A program made the position numbers and the translations under genes. The notes below the pieces were generated by a model. It was not told the DNA's origin and did no database searches. It saw only the letters and a list, made by a program, of their open reading frames with translations. Positions 2,081 to 42,457 of a stretch of DNA of 43,029 nt are shown here, piece after piece; position 1 is the stretch's first letter, and each line of letters starts with the position of its first letter. Source of the DNA: Staphylococcus phage vB_SpsS_QT1; the sequence record NC_048192.1. One strand, written 5' to 3'.

Positions 2081-3238
2081 ATGGGGTTATTTGACAGTGT
2101 TTTTAAACGACATTCTGAGTTGTCTTGGATGTACGACTTAGAATTTCTTCAAGATAAAAGCAAAAAAGCCTATTTAAAACAAATTGCACTCAACACTGTT
2201 GTTGAAATGGTTGCACGGACTATATCACAAAGTGAGTTTAGAGTGATGAAAAACAATACAAAAGAAAAAGGTACCTTGTATTACTTACTCAATGTTCGTC
2301 CAAACAGAAATCAAAATGCTGTGGATTTTTGGCAAAAGTTTATTTTTAAATTAATTATGGATAATGAAGTGCTTGTAGTTAAAAATGATGAAGGGCACTT
2401 TTTTGTTGCGGATGATTTCGAGAAAGAAGATGAGCTAGGTTTATATTCACATCGATTCACCAATGTCTTAGTTAATGATTTTGAGTTCAAGCGTGTCTTT
2501 ACTATGGATGATGTCATCTATTTAAAATATAACAATCAGAAGCTGGATGCGTTTTCACTTGGATTGTTTGAGGATTATGGCGAGATTTTCGGACGAATGA
2601 TTGACTTGCAAATGCTCAATAATCAAATTAGAGGAATCTTAAAAGTCGACGCAACAAAATTTTACAATAAAGAGAAACAAAAAGAGCTACAAGCTTATAT
2701 TGATACGTTATTTGATGCATTTCAAAATAATACGATTGCCGTTGTGCCCTTAACAGAAGGTTTAGCTTATGAGGAACATTCAAATAGAGGCGCTGCACAA
2801 AGCGCTCAACAGTTTTCGGAGCTTAATGAGCTAAAAAAGACTGTTTTAACAGATGTAGCCCGAATGATTGGCGTGCCACCGTCACTTGTTTTAGGGGAGA
2901 TGGCGGACTTAGAAAAAACCATTGAGTCTTACTTACAATTTTGTATTAATCCGTTGCTGCGTAAAATTGAAGCGGAGTTAAACAGTAAATTTTTCTATCA
3001 AGACGAATACTTAAATGATGATATGCACATTAAAGTTGTAGGCATAGACAAACGGGACCCACTCAAATTATCAGAGGCTATCGACAAATTAGTCGCGTCA
3101 GGAACGTTCACACGTAACCAAGTACGTATCATGACAGGTGAGGAGCCTGCAGATGACCCAGAACTCGATAAATTTATCATCACTAAAAACCTTCAAAGTG
3201 CTGACGCTTTTAAAGGGGGTGAATCTAATGAAGAGTAG
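2081..3238 (+). CDS. Portal protein
   Basis: 385 aa, AAAGGAGG RBS, follows TerL and precedes the prohead protease. Confidence 0.8.
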   Translation: MGLFDSVFKRHSELSWMYDLEFLQDKSKKAYLKQIALNTVVEMVARTISQSEFRVMKNNTKEKGTLYYLLNVRPNRNQNAVDFWQKFIFKLIMDNEVLVVKNDEGHFFVADDFEKEDELGLYSHRFTNVLVNDFEFKRVFTMDDVIYLKYNNQKLDAFSLGLFEDYGEIFGRMIDLQMLNNQIRGILKVDATKFYNKEKQKELQAYIDTLFDAFQNNTIAVVPLTEGLAYEEHSNRGAAQSAQQFSELNELKKTVLTDVARMIGVPPSLVLGEMADLEKTIESYLQFCINPLLRKIEAELNSKFFYQDEYLNDDMHIKVVGIDKRDPLKLSEAIDKLVASGTFTRNQVRIMTGEEPADDPELDKFIITKNLQSADAFKGGESNEE

Positions 3239-24528: not shown

Positions 24529-24773
24529 GAACGTCTCGGGGACGTTTTTCTATACTTTTAAGATTTCGGGGACGTTTTGAGGACGTTCAGCGTAAAATAC
24601 TACATTCAACGAAAACCAACCAAACACAACAAAACACCGTCATACCAACGTTTTAAGTCACGTGATACAACGGTGTACTAACGAAAAATAACCAAAATAC
24701 GGAAACGGAGGGTGTATGTGTATCCTGTAATAACCAAGGTTTCGGCATTTTGGGGACGTTTCGGGGACGTTGG
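24529..24773. repeat. Putative attP region with integrase arm-type repeats (GGGGACGTT x4 plus GAGGACGTT) flanking an A/C-rich core
   Basis: Repeats at 24537-24545, 24567-24575, 24577-24585, 24752-24760, 24763-24771; inverted AACGTC/GACGTT at 24529-24546; directly abuts the 3' end of the integrase gene. Confidence 0.45.
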
Positions 24774-25820
24774 TTACATACTTTTAATCAAGTTAATAGT
24801 TTTTTGTTTTTCTTCGACCTGAGTCTCTTCTAACAGATGAGAATATACTTCTAACGTTGTTTTGATATTAGCGTGACCAAGCCTTTTAGATATATAGTAA
24901 ATTGATACACCGCCATGCAATAGATAAGAGCAATGTGTGTGTCTTATTGCATGTAGAGTGAAATTTCCTAATTTATTTTCTAAACAGAATTTTTGAAGTA
25001 TTTTTGTTACTGCATTGTTTGTTATTAGAGAATAGCCTGTATTAAACAATTGTCTATTCATGTTAATTGGCATTTCAGTCATTGTTCTTTTTAAAACCTT
25101 CATGTCTTCACTCGGGACATCGACTATACGATCTGATGTTACTGTCTTTGTACCTCTTAAATGAATCGTGTTATTAATGAAATCTAAGTCATCAGTTGTT
25201 AATTTTTGAACTTCACCAAAACGAGCTCCTGTTATAACTAAAATGTAGATAAACAAATATGATTGAGTAGGGACATTTGCCACATAATTTTTCAATTTTT
25301 TATAATCTGCTATACTCATAAATTTGTCTTCTTCTGGCTGGCTAGGCTTTTTCCCTTTTACAATAGCTTTATAAGTAGGGTCTTTATAAATAAGCCCTTC
25401 TTGCATAGCGTCGGATAGCGCTGCTTTAAGACAATTGTGTATTTTTTTAACTGATTCTGTCGCATGATTATCACCATACCATTTTAAGAATTTTCGATAA
25501 AAAATTGTTGTGAAATTATTCAAAGTAATATCGTCTAGGTTTTCAGTATAGAGAAATTTCTTGAATTGTTTTATAGCATTAACGTATGTTTGATAAGCTT
25601 TGTCTGTAATTACGCCCTTTTTGTTGACTTCCATCCACTGTTCATAATAATCGATAAAAGAACTTTTATTGTTGATAATTATACCTTGCATTAGTTTATT
25701 TTTAGCTATTGTTTCAGCTTCAGTGGCTTCACGTTTGGTTTTAAAACCTTTCTTTTTATATCGTTTGCCTTCATAGCCGAAATCGTAATACCACTTATTA
25801 CCATATTTTCTAACACTCAT
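24774..25820 (-). CDS. int: Tyrosine integrase
   Basis: 348 aa; HAIRHTHCSYLL (HxxR) and C-terminal catalytic Tyr region LEVYSHLL; GAGGAG RBS on minus strand. Confidence 0.9.
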   Translation of the reverse strand: MSVRKYGNKWYYDFGYEGKRYKKKGFKTKREATEAETIAKNKLMQGIIINNKSSFIDYYEQWMEVNKKGVITDKAYQTYVNAIKQFKKFLYTENLDDITLNNFTTIFYRKFLKWYGDNHATESVKKIHNCLKAALSDAMQEGLIYKDPTYKAIVKGKKPSQPEEDKFMSIADYKKLKNYVANVPTQSYLFIYILVITGARFGEVQKLTTDDLDFINNTIHLRGTKTVTSDRIVDVPSEDMKVLKRTMTEMPINMNRQLFNTGYSLITNNAVTKILQKFCLENKLGNFTLHAIRHTHCSYLLHGGVSIYYISKRLGHANIKTTLEVYSHLLEETQVEEKQKTINLIKSM

Positions 25821-37509: not shown

Positions 37510-39960
37510 ATGTTAGACAAAGTCACACAACCTAAAAAAATTAAATATGATCGTGATATTCAGTATGCCTTTGCTAGCAGTCGTTTAGCTACGAACTGGA
37601 CTAATCACAATATGGCTTGGTCTGACTTTATGCAAAAGCTTTCTTCAACGGTTCGGACAAAAGAGAGCCTACTCGATTACAACAAAATGTCTAAATCCGA
37701 ACAAGCTAATGTGAAAGACGTTGGTGGGTTCGTTGGGGGCTATCTAAAAGAAGGCAAGCGCAGAGCGGGGCAAGTGATGAACCGCTCCATGCTAACGCTT
37801 GACATTGACTATGCAGCGCAAGATATGGTCGACATGTTATCAATGTTTTACGATTTTGCTTATTGTGTCTATTCAACGCACAAGCATAGAGATGTCAGCC
37901 CTAGATTAAGATTAGTTGTTCCTCTTAAACGCAATGTCAATTCGGACGAATATGAGGCGGTTGGGCGTAAAGTTGCTGATATGGTAGGTATGGACTATTT
38001 TGATGATACGACATACCAGCCTCATCGGCTAATGTACTGGCCATCTACAAGTAATGATGCAGAATTCTTCTTTTCTTATGAGGACTTACCTTTATTAGAT
38101 CCCGATAAAGTTTTAGATGAATATGTAAATTGGACAGATACCCTCGAGTGGCCGACGTCGTCGAGAGAAGAAAGCAAAACAAGACATTTAGCAGACAAGC
38201 AAGGAAACCCAGAAGAAAAACCTGGTATTGTTGGTGCATTTTGTCGCGCGTATTCAATAGAAGAAGCAATTGATACCTTTATACCTGAATTGTATGACCA
38301 CCATAGCAGCAACCGTTACACGTACCATGAAGGCTCAACATCAGGTGGGCTTGTATTATATGAGAATGGCAAATTTGCCTATTCACATCACAATACTGAC
38401 CCCGTGAGTGGGCTATTGGTGAATAGCTTTGACTTAATACGGATTCATTTATATGGTGCGCAAGATGAAGATGTGAAAGCTGATACGCCGATTAACAGAC
38501 TACCAAGTTATAAGGCGATGCAGACCAAAGCTCAAAATGACGAGCGCGTTAAAAAGCAATTGATTAATGACAGGATTTCAAGTGCCGCAGATGATTTTGA
38601 CGAGATTAATACAGGCGATGATGACAGTTGGGACGAAACTCTTGAGATCACTTCAAAAGGCACATTCAAAGCGAGTATACCTAATATAGAAATTATTTTG
38701 CGCAATGATTCTAACTTAAAAGGTAAAATCGCATTTAATGAATTTACCAAACAGATTGAATGTCTAGGTAAAACACCATGGAACAAAGACTTCAAGACAA
38801 GACAATGGCAAGATGGCGATGATAGCGCGTTACGTAGCTACATTGAAAAGATTTATGAGATACACCATTCTGGTAAAACAAAAGATGCCATTATAAGTGT
38901 GGCGCTTCAAAATGCCTATCACCCAGTTAGGGACTATCTTAACAATTTAGAGTGGGACAAAAAGCCAAGATTAGAAACGCTATTCATTAAATATTTAGGC
39001 GTTGAAGATTCAAAAGTTAATCGCACAATTACACGTAAATCATTAACGGCTGGCGTTGCTAGAGTGATGGAACCTGGTTGCAAATTCGACTATATGCTTA
39101 CGTTATATGGCCCTCAAGGCGTCGGTAAATCCGCTATTCTTAAAAAGCTGGGTGGCGGTTGGTTTTCAGATAGTTTAGTTTCGGTGACTGGAAAAGAAGC
39201 GTATGAGGCGTTGCAAGGGGTTTGGATTATGGAAATGGCCGAACTTGCAGCAACACGTAAAGCAGAGGTTGAAGCGATTAAGCACTTCATATCAAAACAA
39301 ATTGACCGCTTCCGTGTCGCGTACGGACATTACATTGAAGATTTTCCACGCCAATGTATTTTTATCGGTACAACAAACAAAGTTGATTTCTTAAGAGATG
39401 AAACGGGAGGTCGTCGTTTTTGGCCTATGACTGTTAATCCTGACAAAGTGGAAGTTAAGTGGTCTAAGTTGACTAAAGACGAAATCAATCAAATTTGGGC
39501 TGAAGCAAAGCACTATTACGAACAAGGTGAAGAACTTTATCTTGATCCTGAACTTGAAGAAGAAATGCGTTCAATACAAAGTAAACATACAGAAGAGTCA
39601 CCGTATTTAGGCATTATCGAGGAGTTTTTAAATACACCTATTCCAAGTAACTGGAATGAAATGTCTATTTCTGAACGACGGGACTTTTATAAGTTTGGTG
39701 ATGACTCAATCAGTGAGCAGAGCAGCAAATTGGTTCAAAGGGATAGAGTGTGTGCTTTAGAAATTTTTATCGAATGCTTTGGAAAAGATAAAGGCGACGG
39801 CAGGGGTTCTATGGAACTTAAAAAAATAACAAATGCTTTAAGACAGTTAAATGATTGGGAAGTTTATGACGGCAATAAAGAAGGCAAACTTAAATTTGGT
39901 AAAGAGTATGGAAAGCAAAAAGCTTATGTTAGGCAGGATCATTTTAATGACTTAATATAA
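37510..39960 (+). CDS. Primase-helicase, VirE / D5-type (N-terminal primase-polymerase-like domain plus SF3-type NTPase)
   Basis: 816 aa; Walker A LYGPQGVGKS; AAAGGGG RBS. Confidence 0.8.
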   Translation: MLDKVTQPKKIKYDRDIQYAFASSRLATNWTNHNMAWSDFMQKLSSTVRTKESLLDYNKMSKSEQANVKDVGGFVGGYLKEGKRRAGQVMNRSMLTLDIDYAAQDMVDMLSMFYDFAYCVYSTHKHRDVSPRLRLVVPLKRNVNSDEYEAVGRKVADMVGMDYFDDTTYQPHRLMYWPSTSNDAEFFFSYEDLPLLDPDKVLDEYVNWTDTLEWPTSSREESKTRHLADKQGNPEEKPGIVGAFCRAYSIEEAIDTFIPELYDHHSSNRYTYHEGSTSGGLVLYENGKFAYSHHNTDPVSGLLVNSFDLIRIHLYGAQDEDVKADTPINRLPSYKAMQTKAQNDERVKKQLINDRISSAADDFDEINTGDDDSWDETLEITSKGTFKASIPNIEIILRNDSNLKGKIAFNEFTKQIECLGKTPWNKDFKTRQWQDGDDSALRSYIEKIYEIHHSGKTKDAIISVALQNAYHPVRDYLNNLEWDKKPRLETLFIKYLGVEDSKVNRTITRKSLTAGVARVMEPGCKFDYMLTLYGPQGVGKSAILKKLGGGWFSDSLVSVTGKEAYEALQGVWIMEMAELAATRKAEVEAIKHFISKQIDRFRVAYGHYIEDFPRQCIFIGTTNKVDFLRDETGGRRFWPMTVNPDKVEVKWSKLTKDEINQIWAEAKHYYEQGEELYLDPELEEEMRSIQSKHTEESPYLGIIEEFLNTPIPSNWNEMSISERRDFYKFGDDSISEQSSKLVQRDRVCALEIFIECFGKDKGDGRGSMELKKITNALRQLNDWEVYDGNKEGKLKFGKEYGKQKAYVRQDHFNDLI

Positions 39961-39980
39961 ATTTTAATGACTTAATATAA
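39941..39980. repeat. Perfect tandem duplication of 20 bp (ATTTTAATGACTTAATATAA x2) spanning the primase stop codon, followed by a partial third copy
   Basis: Read directly. Confidence 0.85.
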
Positions 39981-40009
39981 ATTTAAATGCATAAATATCC
40001 AAAAGATAG

Positions 40010-40299
40010 CGTCCCTTTACTTTAGATTCACCGTGCCTTTTAAATTTAGTAAAGGGACGGTGAGAGTGTAAATTTCTATTGTGTCGTCCCTTGCGTGCCT
40101 TTTGAAAAAACAATAAAGGCACGGTTAAAGGCACGGCACAAATGTAGTCATATCAAAGGTTTGAGTGCTATCGTCCCTTGCGTCCCTTTTATTTTACTAA
40201 ATAGATTAATATTTAATGATAGGGAGTAAGTAGAAGTATAGTTGACCTCTAATAGCGTAATAGTATGAAAAAGTTAAAAATTAAGGCACGCAAGGGACG
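40010..40299. repeat. Iteron-like array: 11 copies of CGTSCCTT(T) in both orientations, including a 17-bp inverted repeat pair (40085-40101 and 40283-40299) bracketing an AT-rich stretch; candidate replication origin
   Basis: Plus-strand copies at 40010, 40032, 40085, 40094, 40172, 40181; minus-strand copies at 40051, 40115, 40127, 40283, 40292. Confidence 0.55.
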
Positions 40300-40337
40300 C
40301 ACATATAAATTATGTATACATTATGCAGGTGGGATAA

Positions 40338-40634
40338 ATGAGAGAATCGAACATTGAAAAGTATTTGGTAAGAGAAGTTAGAAAGAAAAAAGGCTTGTGC
40401 TTGAAGTGGGTTGCACCTGGAACAAAAGGTGTGCCTGATAGAATCGTCATCATGCCAAAAGGAAAAACCTATTATGTTGAGATGAAACAACCAAACGGCC
40501 GAGTAGATCCGTTACAAAAATATATGCACAAGCAATTAGAAGATAGAGGGCATCAAGTATTTACCTTATGGGATAAAAAACAGGTTGATGAGTTTATAGA
40601 AAAGGTAGGTGCAAAAGATGGCAATTCAGTTTAA
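40338..40634 (+). CDS. VRR-NUC domain nuclease
   Basis: 98 aa; GVPDRIVIM...YYVEMKQ fits the PD-(D/E)XK pattern typical of VRR-NUC; precedes SNF2 helicase as usual. Confidence 0.6.
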   Translation: MRESNIEKYLVREVRKKKGLCLKWVAPGTKGVPDRIVIMPKGKTYYVEMKQPNGRVDPLQKYMHKQLEDRGHQVFTLWDKKQVDEFIEKVGAKDGNSV

Positions 40635-41976
40635 GCCACATGTCTACCAAAAGCATTCAATTGATAAAGTAATAGACAATGAGAAGTACGGTCTTTTCTT
40701 AGATATGGGTTTGGGAAAAACGGTATCAACGTTAACAGCATTTAGTGATCTACAATTATTAGATACTGAAAAGATGTTAGTCATAGCACCTTTAAATGTA
40801 GCTAAGGACACGTGGGCGGATGAGATAAATAAGTGGGAGCACTTAAAGCATTTACGTGTATCTAAAGTATTAGGCACACCCAAGCAAAGGCTAGCAGCAC
40901 TTAATAAAGAAGCTGATATCTACGTAACAAATAAAGAAAACACAAAATGGTTATGTGATCAATACAAAAAAGATTGGCCTTTTGACATGGTAGTGATAGA
41001 TGAATTATCAACGTTTAAAAATCCATCAAGTCAAAGGTTTAAAGCAATTAGGAAGAAACTTCCTTTAATGAAAAGGTTTGTTGGTTTAACTGGTACACCT
41101 AGCCCGAACAGCTTACTGGATTTGTGGGCACAGGTCTATTTGATTGATAGAGGTGAAAGGCTAGAAACGTCATTCAGTAGATATCGAGAAAGGTTTTTTA
41201 AACCTACACATCAGATCAGCGATCATGTATTTAATTGGGAACTTAGAGGCGGGTCGGAAGAAAAGATATATGAGCTGATAGAGGACGTATGCTTAAGTAT
41301 GAAAGCCAGTGACTATTTAGATATGCCTGAAAGAATAGATACTGTTCAATCCGTTAACTTATCCAGTAAAGAACGTAAGTTGTATGATGAGCTTGAAAAA
41401 CATTACATCCTAGAATCAGAAGAAGATGGGACAATAGTTGCACAAAGTGGAGCTTCACTAAGTCAAAAGCTTTTACAGTTATCTAACGGTGCCGTTTATA
41501 CAGACGATGAAAGTGTAAGACACTTACACGACCGTAAACTTGATAAGTTGGAAGAAATAATAGAAGAGTCGCAAGGTCAACCGCTTCTTGTATTCTACAA
41601 CTTTAAACATGATAAAGAACGAATAATGGAACGGTTTGATGAAGTTGTCACTTTAGATGACGAAAGCTATAAAGATAGATGGATTGAAGGTAAAGTTAAA
41701 ATATTATTAGCGCATCCTGCAAGCGCAGGGCATGGACTAAACCTACAAAAAGGCGGACATATTATTGTGTGGTTTGGGTTAACTTGGTCTTTAGAATTGT
41801 ATCAGCAAGCCAATGCTAGATTGTACCGACAAGGACAAACACACACAACAATCATACATCACATTATGACAGATAATACAATTGACCAAAAAGTGTATCA
41901 GGCGCTGCAGAATAAAGAGCTTACGCAAGAGGACCTAATGCAGGCTATCAAAGCAAGGATAAAACAGTATGAATAA
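40618..41976 (+). CDS. SNF2-family helicase
   Basis: Start at ATG 40618 (AAGGTAGGTG RBS); Walker A DMGLGKT, DEAH-like VIDELS, motif VI QANARLYRQGQ. Confidence 0.8.
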   Translation: MAIQFKPHVYQKHSIDKVIDNEKYGLFLDMGLGKTVSTLTAFSDLQLLDTEKMLVIAPLNVAKDTWADEINKWEHLKHLRVSKVLGTPKQRLAALNKEADIYVTNKENTKWLCDQYKKDWPFDMVVIDELSTFKNPSSQRFKAIRKKLPLMKRFVGLTGTPSPNSLLDLWAQVYLIDRGERLETSFSRYRERFFKPTHQISDHVFNWELRGGSEEKIYELIEDVCLSMKASDYLDMPERIDTVQSVNLSSKERKLYDELEKHYILESEEDGTIVAQSGASLSQKLLQLSNGAVYTDDESVRHLHDRKLDKLEEIIEESQGQPLLVFYNFKHDKERIMERFDEVVTLDDESYKDRWIEGKVKILLAHPASAGHGLNLQKGGHIIVWFGLTWSLELYQQANARLYRQGQTHTTIIHHIMTDNTIDQKVYQALQNKELTQEDLMQAIKARIKQYE

Positions 41977-41989
41977 TGGAGGGTGTTTG

Positions 41990-42457
41990 ATGTATTCGAA
42001 AGATCAGATTAAAGATATGATATTTAGTTATCATTGGAGAAAGAATGTCCTAGCAGATGAAGGCTATGCATATGACAGTAACAGTGTAGCGCAATACGGT
42101 GTCGATGCAGCAATGCCAAAAGCTAAAGGACAGACCACAGATAAAGTACAAAGATTAGCAACAAACAACTGCGTGCTAAGTAGAATATATGACGAGCACC
42201 TAAAGACAATACAGTTTATCGATACGTATGAGGGACAAATAGACAACGACATGAACTTGAATATATTGATGTTGTTTAAGAAGGGGAAGAAGCCCGTAGA
42301 GATTAGGGAGATTATGAATATCGGTCGTACTAATTTAGATAGTAGAATTAACAGTATTGTCAATGTTTATTATCTTGTGCAGGATAAGCATAATCAACGC
42401 AATCAACACAATCAACACAATCAACACAATCAACACAATCAACACAATCAACACTAA
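41990..42457 (+). CDS. ArpU/RinA-like late-gene transcriptional activator with C-terminal (NQH)n repeat tail
   Basis: Start at ATG 41990 (GGAGGG RBS 6 nt upstream; ORF track uses 41969); PVEIREIMNIGRTNLDSRI resembles a sigma region-4-like HTH; position immediately upstream of the HNH and terS genes. Confidence 0.45.
   Translation: MYSKDQIKDMIFSYHWRKNVLADEGYAYDSNSVAQYGVDAAMPKAKGQTTDKVQRLATNNCVLSRIYDEHLKTIQFIDTYEGQIDNDMNLNILMLFKKGKKPVEIREIMNIGRTNLDSRINSIVNVYYLVQDKHNQRNQHNQHNQHNQHNQHNQH
42393..42446 (+). repeat. In-frame 9-bp tandem repeat, AATCAACGC once then AATCAACAC x5, encoding NQR(NQH)5 at the C-terminus
   Basis: Read directly; the ORF stops immediately after the last unit. Confidence 0.85.

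Follow-up and report, generated by a model that had tools for sequence, protein, structure and literature searches.

The question raised by this locus is what function resides in the non-coding gap at 39961-40337 of Staphylococcus phage vB_SpsS_QT1 (NC_048192.1), which lies between an 816-aa open reading frame (ORF; 37510-39960, plus strand) and a 98-aa VRR-NUC ORF (40338-40634) and harbors an array of short repeats. The whole stretch of 43,029 nucleotides, referred to as the window, belongs to a Staphylococcus phage that is of one type with 2638A and phiSP119-1. A preliminary description of this DNA had proposed an iteron origin for a VirE-type initiator, by analogy with the staphylococcal pathogenicity islands (SaPIs), and had named a binding array for a transcriptional regulator as the alternative. 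From our comparisons, it is highly probable that positions 39961-40300 constitute the replication origin of the phage, that this origin is of the SaPI Rep/ori type, and that its array is bound by the primase-helicase encoded directly upstream. The link to the islands turned out to be one of homology (SaPI1 Rep1, E = 5e-87) and not only of analogy. This reading is further supported by an origin layout as described for SaPIs, by the conservation of the array among relatives, by the co-variation of the iteron motif with a C-terminal hairpin of the protein, and by a natural exchange of both parts between two related prophages, L007 and L009.

Within the 43,029-bp window, the motif CGTSCCTT has 11 exact matches, all of which are located at 40010-40299, six on the plus and five on the minus strand. 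Dinucleotide-preserving shuffles (n = 100) contained the motif 1.52 times on average and five times at most, so that 0 of 100 reached the observed count. Seven of the eight core positions are invariant, position 4 being either C or G, and no copies with one mismatch were found in 39900-40400. The array starts 50 bp past the stop codon of the primase-helicase gene (39958-39960) and is composed of three single sites and four dimers (Table 1). The number and strands of the copies given in the preliminary description were hence borne out, as were the tandem of two TAAAGGCACGG units (40114-40124 and 40126-40136) and the 17-bp inverted pair at 40085-40101 and 40283-40299, which is 100% complementary. 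The A+T-rich stretch that this pair was said to bracket is real as well, but its immediate brackets are the dimers at 40172-40188 and 40283-40299, which face each other across the spacer, and not the pair originally named.

The spacer stands out by composition (77.7% A+T, compared to 63.1% for the whole window), which places it at the 99.7th percentile of all 94-nt windows. Its least stable part extends over 40183-40240, and few duplex segments in the genome are as unstable as the first 50 bp of the spacer. Between motif classes, the spacer is more conserved than the iteron clusters. The stability profile, which had been suggested as a check in the preliminary description, also revealed a second tract absent from that description: the DNA at 39940-40009, to the left of the array, is even less stable than the spacer. 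A 40-mer starting here at 39949 ranks second in instability among those of the whole window, and the segment from the end of the gene to the first iteron (39961-40009) has an A+T content of 83.7%.

The protein encoded upstream can be divided into an archaeo-eukaryotic primase (AEP) type part at residues ~1-380, a VapE/superfamily 3 (SF3) helicase core at residues 477-694 (Pfam VapE-like domain, 2.3e-83), and a C-terminal winged-helix part at residues ~720-816. PHROG matches were to helicase and primase families (phrog_9765, 'DNA primase'), while Pfam and NCBIfam returned nothing for the N-terminal 400 aa or the C-terminal domain. A phmmer search against all PDB sequences gave a sole hit, the SaPI1 Rep1 chain 7PDS_A (E = 5.1e-87), in which residues 382-805 of the query align with residues 26-463 of the chain. 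The AlphaFold2 (AF2) model of residues 680-816 (predicted local distance difference test, pLDDT, of 82) has three helices and, C-terminal to them, a beta-hairpin wing, the strands of which span 793-796 and 801-804 and come after a helix at 766-779. Foldseek ranked the six 7PDS chains first for this model (E 1e-7 to 4e-6); forkhead winged-helix structures came next, with weak matches. The model of the N-terminal 380 aa (pLDDT 90) matched the AEP domain of the cyanophage S-2L PrimPol (6.1e-5) and the RepB' primase (2.5e-3). Judged by the 7PDS match together with these N-terminal structural matches, the 816-aa protein is, as modelled, a fusion of an AEP primase and a Rep1-like initiator-helicase. 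That its C-terminal winged helix recognizes the origin is what we infer from the co-variation considered below. The primase-helicase family was found in 597 phage records, with Streptococcus (135), Bacteroides (105), and Staphylococcus (96) as frequent hosts and Enterococcus among the others. Its members are often annotated as 'virulence-associated protein E' or 'hypothetical', which hides the initiator role.

In the structure 7PDS, SaPI1 Rep1 was resolved together with DNA by cryo-EM, and the SaPI Reps are self-loading initiator-helicases in which a C-terminal winged helix reads penta- or hexanucleotide iterons (PMC9371898). According to the same work, SaPI origins contain 6-12 iterons directly downstream of rep. 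These enclose an A+T-rich region, and both of its flanks hold two or more iterons, those of one flank being oriented opposite to those of the other. Neither Rep1 nor PriRep5 requires ATP for the specific binding of its own origin, and both sustain the replication of ori plasmids in vivo; the three SaPI Rep prototypes are unrelated in sequence (PMC9371898). The layout of the window matches that of a SaPI origin. It has 11 iterons directly 3' of the gene and an A+T-rich region, off-centre in the array, that is flanked on each side by at least two iterons in opposite orientations. The initiator is homologous to the self-loading SF3 helicase of the SaPI Reps, an AEP-type primase is associated with it, in this case by fusion, and cognate pairs of initiator and iterons are indicated by co-variation and by the L007/L009 swap, with genetic linkage as a confounder.

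The closest counterpart is SaPI1 itself, with a homologous helicase core and C-terminal winged helix in Rep1, an origin directly 3' of the gene, short iterons in two orientations around an A+T-rich region, a lineage-specific motif, and the core GGGAGTAAG. In one of the examined contigs (L084), the Rep is 100% identical to the 7PDS sequence and is followed by AAGACAC arrays, in which a plus-strand dimer and a minus-strand dimer stand on either side of ~60 bp of A+T-rich DNA, an arrangement also seen in the window. Islands related to SaPI1 carry GGGACA, GGAACAC or TAGACA arrays, words of the same general form as AAGGGACG. However, SaPI1 has a separate pri gene where the phage has its primase fused to the initiator, it is a satellite and not a full temperate phage, and the window differs in its 8-bp core and its distribution of nine plus two sites. 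The comparison thereby likens the window, which is known from its sequence, to an element whose function has been demonstrated.

The array is retained in the nearest relatives of the phage. Identity over the region amounts to 97.7% for phiSP119-1, 95% for 2638A (genus Fibralongavirus), and 87.7% for the S. pseudintermedius phage vB_SpsX-DS12. In an alignment of the window with these three phages, all 11 sites were kept in phiSP119-1 and 2638A. DS12 has a site at each of the 11 positions as well, all of them switched from CGTSCCTT to a TGTTAC-type word, and its intervening DNA has drifted. Such a joint change of all 11 words is expected of sites that are read by one protein of altered specificity.

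With the protein as a probe, 80 viral contigs at 43-99% identity were collected, corresponding to about 57 distinct sequences, and the 500 nt past the stop codon were examined. Nearly all of these relatives repeat a short word 5-13 times in this region, and the word is specific to the lineage. The window group has AAGGGACG or AAGGCACG, the DS12 group AGTAACAC, and S. aureus phages, tp310-2 and phi2 among them, TGATGCAACA, while other lineages use TTGGACAC, GTATCCA, GTGTGAC, GGACACA, GTTGACA, TACACAA, or GGACCCGC. The arrangement of the sites is nearly identical in all staphylococcal classes and in relatives at ~48% identity (Enterococcus phiFL4A type): two to three single sites are followed by a plus, a minus, and a plus dimer, a gap of ~100 bp, and a final minus dimer. 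The preliminary description had named an absence of the repeats from close relatives as evidence against an origin. The outcome speaks in favor of one, with repeats at the same place in three of three close relatives and in nearly all of the distant ones. Between the window and L007, which belong to one motif class and have proteins of 87% identity, the iteron cores are 98% identical and the intervening DNA only 65%, which shows purifying selection on the words themselves.

Forty distinct staphylococcal-type proteins were aligned and assigned to the motif classes A (CGTSCC), B (TGTTAC), C (TGTTGCA), and D (TGTCCA). The only columns that fully separate A from B are 795 (K/R) and 802 (K/L or S). 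Classes A and C are separated by columns 346, 764, 791, 794, 795, 802, and 804, and classes B and C by 791, 794, 802, and 804. Residues 791, 794, 795, 802, and 804 all fall in the modelled beta-hairpin wing. In the enterococcal-type clade, which is independent of the staphylococcal one, a comparison of the GTATCC and GTGTTAC classes (six proteins each) placed 12 of 12 separating columns at window-equivalent positions 786-811. The C-terminal tails conserve the scaffold (K/R)FG..YG-x-Q-x-AY, in which both x positions track the motif. SaPI-type Reps (GIG-x-Q-YGF) behave alike at the residue before the Gln, with K for AAGACA, R for GGGACA, and L for GGAACA and few exceptions.

The clearest case is provided by L007, of class A, and L009, of class B, whose primases are identical over residues 1-762, with all 11 differences located at 763-812. 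At the DNA level, identity is 100% up to codon ~762 of the gene, only 45-87% from there to the last of the iterons, and again 93-100% beyond the array. By this alignment, the difference between the two prophages is a swapped cassette of ~480 bp that comprises the last ~55 codons and the iterons. Among the plus-strand ORFs within 3 kb on either side, none except the primase-helicase segregates with the motif class (A vs B).

Several results weigh against the origin reading and have to be set beside this evidence. Nine sites lie to the left of the spacer and two to the right, whereas about half per side is described for SaPI origins, and the motif core of 8 bp is longer than the 5-6 bp of the SaPI iterons. 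In one relative, L057, the 500 nt past the gene contain no array. The origin of L057 may have been displaced by an insertion; its segment 2638-3138 is array-free, and a possible GGTAAACAAA repeat starts only near 3164. Neither GC skew nor cumulative skew has an inflection at the array, and this check, also named in the preliminary description, was uninformative due to the fact that nearly all genes are on one strand. In the searchable literature, no description of an origin in 2638A-type or VirE-type phages was found. The co-variation search took in ORFs up to 3 kb away. Finally, the co-varying residues are encoded 40-400 bp from the iterons, and linkage within a recombination block contributes to the association; with the tail encoded beside the iterons, linkage alone would yield some of it. 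We nevertheless argue for a functional coupling of tail and iterons beyond linkage, since the sites have changed in a coordinated manner, the residues map to the DNA-binding wing of a protein type known to bind origins, and the pattern recurs in three clades.

With regards to other explanations, the array could bind the initiator while synthesis starts elsewhere, for example inside the primase gene, so that the repeats would act as an enhancer or handcuffing site comparable to crr of phage P4. We consider this unlikely. P4 does need crr as a second iteron cluster besides its origin, and the nine-plus-two asymmetry together with the tract at 39940-40009 leaves the melting site open. However, a search for a second cluster of the motif across the 43-kb window found none, and in the homologous SaPI system the array itself is the functional origin (PMC9371898, PMC7581432).

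We regard it as quite improbable that the array is an operator for a regulator of the VRR-NUC / SNF2 operon, either a separate protein or the primase-helicase in the role of a repressor, with replication starting at another place. Transcription probably runs through the array, as no plus-strand terminator is present between the primase and VRR-NUC genes, and the dimer at 40283-40299 occupies the -35 place for a conserved TATAAAT at 40304-40310. Initiator binding may also plausibly have a secondary effect, as a roadblock or in autoregulation. Against an operator stands the promoter scan, in which no sigma-70-like promoter was found on the plus strand in 39500-40700, and 11 sites over 290 bp with an A+T-rich centre are the layout of an origin and not of an operator. 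Moreover, no ORF within 3 kb on either side tracks the motif class, and the sole co-varying segment is the wing of a homologue of Rep1, a known origin binder (PMC9371898). The regulator alternative of the preliminary description found no support in these scans, and what plausibly remains of it is a side effect of initiator binding on the read-through into the VRR-NUC gene. The single minus-strand 'terminator' returned by the terminator scan (40302-40286) was discarded, as it is merely the iteron dimer.

That the array is a structured RNA, a small RNA or a neutral chance cluster can practically be dismissed, since the weak Rfam match to RF01470 rli38 (39982-40128, 34.3 bits, E = 0.0063) is below the gathering threshold of 49 and vanishes when a narrower stretch is searched, the inverted repeats picked up by several microRNA-precursor models and the predicted hairpins are simply inverted iterons, the whole word changes between lineages on both strands instead of compensatory base pairs, the spacer does not fold (as single-stranded DNA, z = +1.9), and the shuffle counts and the conservation of the iteron cores exclude chance. 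The rli38 family is an accessory RNA that occurs only in some strains of Listeria and streptococci.

If positions 39961-40300 are indeed the origin, initiation could follow the course that is suggested by SaPI1 Rep1. The winged helix would bind the eleven CGTSCCTT iterons, chiefly via the wing at ~791-804 (K795, K802, and K804 in the class of the window). Binding at the inward-facing dimers 40172-40188 and 40283-40299 would melt the 94-bp spacer without ATP, and the protein would then assemble as a hexameric helicase on the opened DNA, with no separate loader. The first primers would be laid by its own N-terminal primase. Binding, melting, loading, and priming are all modelled on Rep1 in this scheme.

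Other replicons resemble the locus in part. PriRep5 of SaPI5 (PDB 7OLA, 7OM0) combines primase, helicase, and an origin-binding C-terminal domain on one polypeptide and has its own downstream iteron origin (PMC9371898). However, the sequence search (E <= 0.01) did not recover PriRep5, which thus represents a different Rep prototype. Cch2 of the staphylococcal cassette chromosome SCCmec is a self-loading helicase of the D5/SF3 type that binds direct repeats just downstream of its own gene, but it does so with three iterons and a separate polymerase-like primase complex (CCPol-MP) on an element that is not a phage, and its origin is putative (PMC7581432).

Among phages, the alpha protein of P4 carries primase, helicase, and an iteron-binding C-terminal winged helix on one chain and needs both ori and crr. 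No such second cluster was found in the window. Lambdoid phages fall into specificity types in which the DNA-binding part of the O protein co-varies with the iterons, and related phages exchange the two jointly; both are likenesses to the window. Unlike the window protein, O is neither a helicase nor a primase and relies on P and the host DnaB, and its iterons are part of the O gene itself (PMC7466680, Stx phages).

The L007/L009 swap also invites a broader proposal, which we put forward tentatively and hold to be possible, though rather less likely than not to apply in full. The last ~55 codons and the array may form a portable specificity cassette that is moved by recombination between staphylococcal phages, and possibly between phages and their SaPI-type satellites, whose Reps are homologous, with a code in the wing setting the word and a shared core serving as the common priming or loading site. 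The proposed code would consist of the two variable positions of YG-x-Q-x-AY (K802 and K804 in the window), along with K795. In the tails compared, K/K is found with AAGGGACG, L or S/K with AGTAACA, V/I or V with TGCAACA, and R/L with TTGGACAC. The shared core would be TAGGGAGTAAG (40220-40230), common to phage and SaPI origins of every class, and a conserved portion of the initiator would recognize it. If the proposal is true, two or three substitutions could suffice to re-program origin specificity, and cross-replication or exclusion between phage and satellite would be predictable from sequence.

For better orientation, the coordinates of all features are summarized in Table 1.

Table 1. 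Features of the putative origin region and of the adjoining primase-helicase gene (window coordinates).
Feature	Position	Strand	Basis or remark
Primase-helicase-initiator gene, 816 aa	37510-39960	+	ORF list, Pfam, PHROG, PDB match
Coding part of the proposed specificity cassette, codons 763-816	39796-39960	+	L007/L009 comparison
Wing beta-hairpin (modelled), residues 791-804, EGKLKFGKEYGKQK	39880-39921	+	Class-separating columns, AF2 model
Left A+T-rich low-stability tract, stop codon to first iteron	39940-40009	.	Stability profile
Exact 20-bp tandem duplication of the gene 3' end including the stop	39941-39980	+	Partial third copy
Iterons 1-3 (CGTCCCTT +, CGTGCCTT +, CGTCCCTT -)	40010-40059; starts 40010, 40032, 40052		Positions and orientations kept across motif classes
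Iteron dimer 4-5 (CGTCCCTTGCGTGCCTT)	40085-40101; sites 40085/40094	+	9-bp spacing
Iteron dimer 6-7 (AAAGGCACGG twice as read on +)	40116-40135; sites 40116/40128	-	12-bp spacing
Iteron dimer 8-9 (CGTCCCTTGCGTCCCTT), left bracket of the spacer	40172-40188; sites 40172/40181	+	9-bp spacing
A+T-rich spacer, candidate unwinding region	40189-40282	.	94 bp, 77.7% A+T
Invariant non-iteron core in the spacer: TGATAGGGAGTAAG (40217-40230), CTAATAGC (40249-40256)	40217-40256	+	Classes A-D
Iteron dimer 10-11 (AAGGCACGCAAGGGACG as read on +), right bracket of the spacer	40283-40299; sites 40283/40292	-	9-bp spacing
Conserved VRR-NUC leader: TATAAAT (40304-40310), palindrome ATGTATACAT (40312-40321), ribosome-binding site AGGTGGG (40327-40333)	40304-40337	+	

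Apart from the iterons, the spacer contains two words that do not vary with the motif class. TGTTAGGGAGTAAG (in the window TGATAGGGAGTAAG) and CTAATAGC are invariant across classes A-D and always on the gene strand. The form TTGnGGGAGTAAG or GGGAGAGTAAG of this core is present in many SaPI-type origins, and SaPI1-type origins have GGGAGTAAG, which in L084 is found about 212 nt past the rep stop. The core forms no hairpin, no start codon comes after it, and none of the RNA families matches it. As it is independent of iteron specificity, it is a candidate for a conserved activity, and we conjecture a site for priming, helicase loading, or a host factor. A TTAGGG / CCCTAA stem around the core was considered and rejected, as it is not preserved in the window itself.

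To the right of the array, the VRR-NUC leader is 100% identical in the four aligned phages, including the class B phage, and contains a 10-bp palindrome. It is probably outside of the origin proper and may serve in the regulation of the downstream operon. At the other end, the 20-bp duplication reported in the preliminary description is exact and has a partial third copy, but it is not a conserved feature, as it is absent from phiSP119-1, 2638A, and DS12. With its occurrence in only one of the four phages, it is, by this alignment, a recent slippage event private to the window genome and not a functional part of the element. It extends the left A+T-rich tract and leaves the protein unchanged.

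The kind of element discussed here is already known from work on SaPI and SCCmec (PMC9371898, PMC7581432). What is new is the phage version with a fused primase, along with the family-wide architecture, the lineage-specific words, the swappable cassette, the candidate residues, and the invariant core. The 2638A / phiSP119-1 group thereby gains a well-supported origin and, by extension, so does a family present in about 600 sequenced phages of several hosts. The SaPI replicon would then be the satellite counterpart of a replicon that phages still use. Natural cassette swaps point to residues 795, 802, and 804 as candidates for reading the iterons. Possible uses are the annotation of origins, phage-derived vectors, resistance by origin decoys, and the prediction of replicon cross-talk between helper and satellite.

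The remaining repeat clusters of the window are not iterons. Just upstream of the integrase gene (24774-25820, minus strand), whose product has an arm DNA-binding domain, GGGGACGTT occurs in four exact copies and one near copy, arranged in two groups at 24538-24771. These repeats are probably attP arm-type integrase sites, and the hexamer GGGACG that they have in common with the iteron is probably a coincidence. The second cluster belongs to the ORF 41969-42457 (162 aa), which was assigned to phrog_1058 (unknown function) and had no significant Pfam or NCBIfam hit, so that the label 'late activator' used in the preliminary description could not be verified. This ORF ends in seven copies of a perfect 9-bp tandem repeat, AATCAACAC (42392-42454), which translate into a C-terminal tripeptide repeat.

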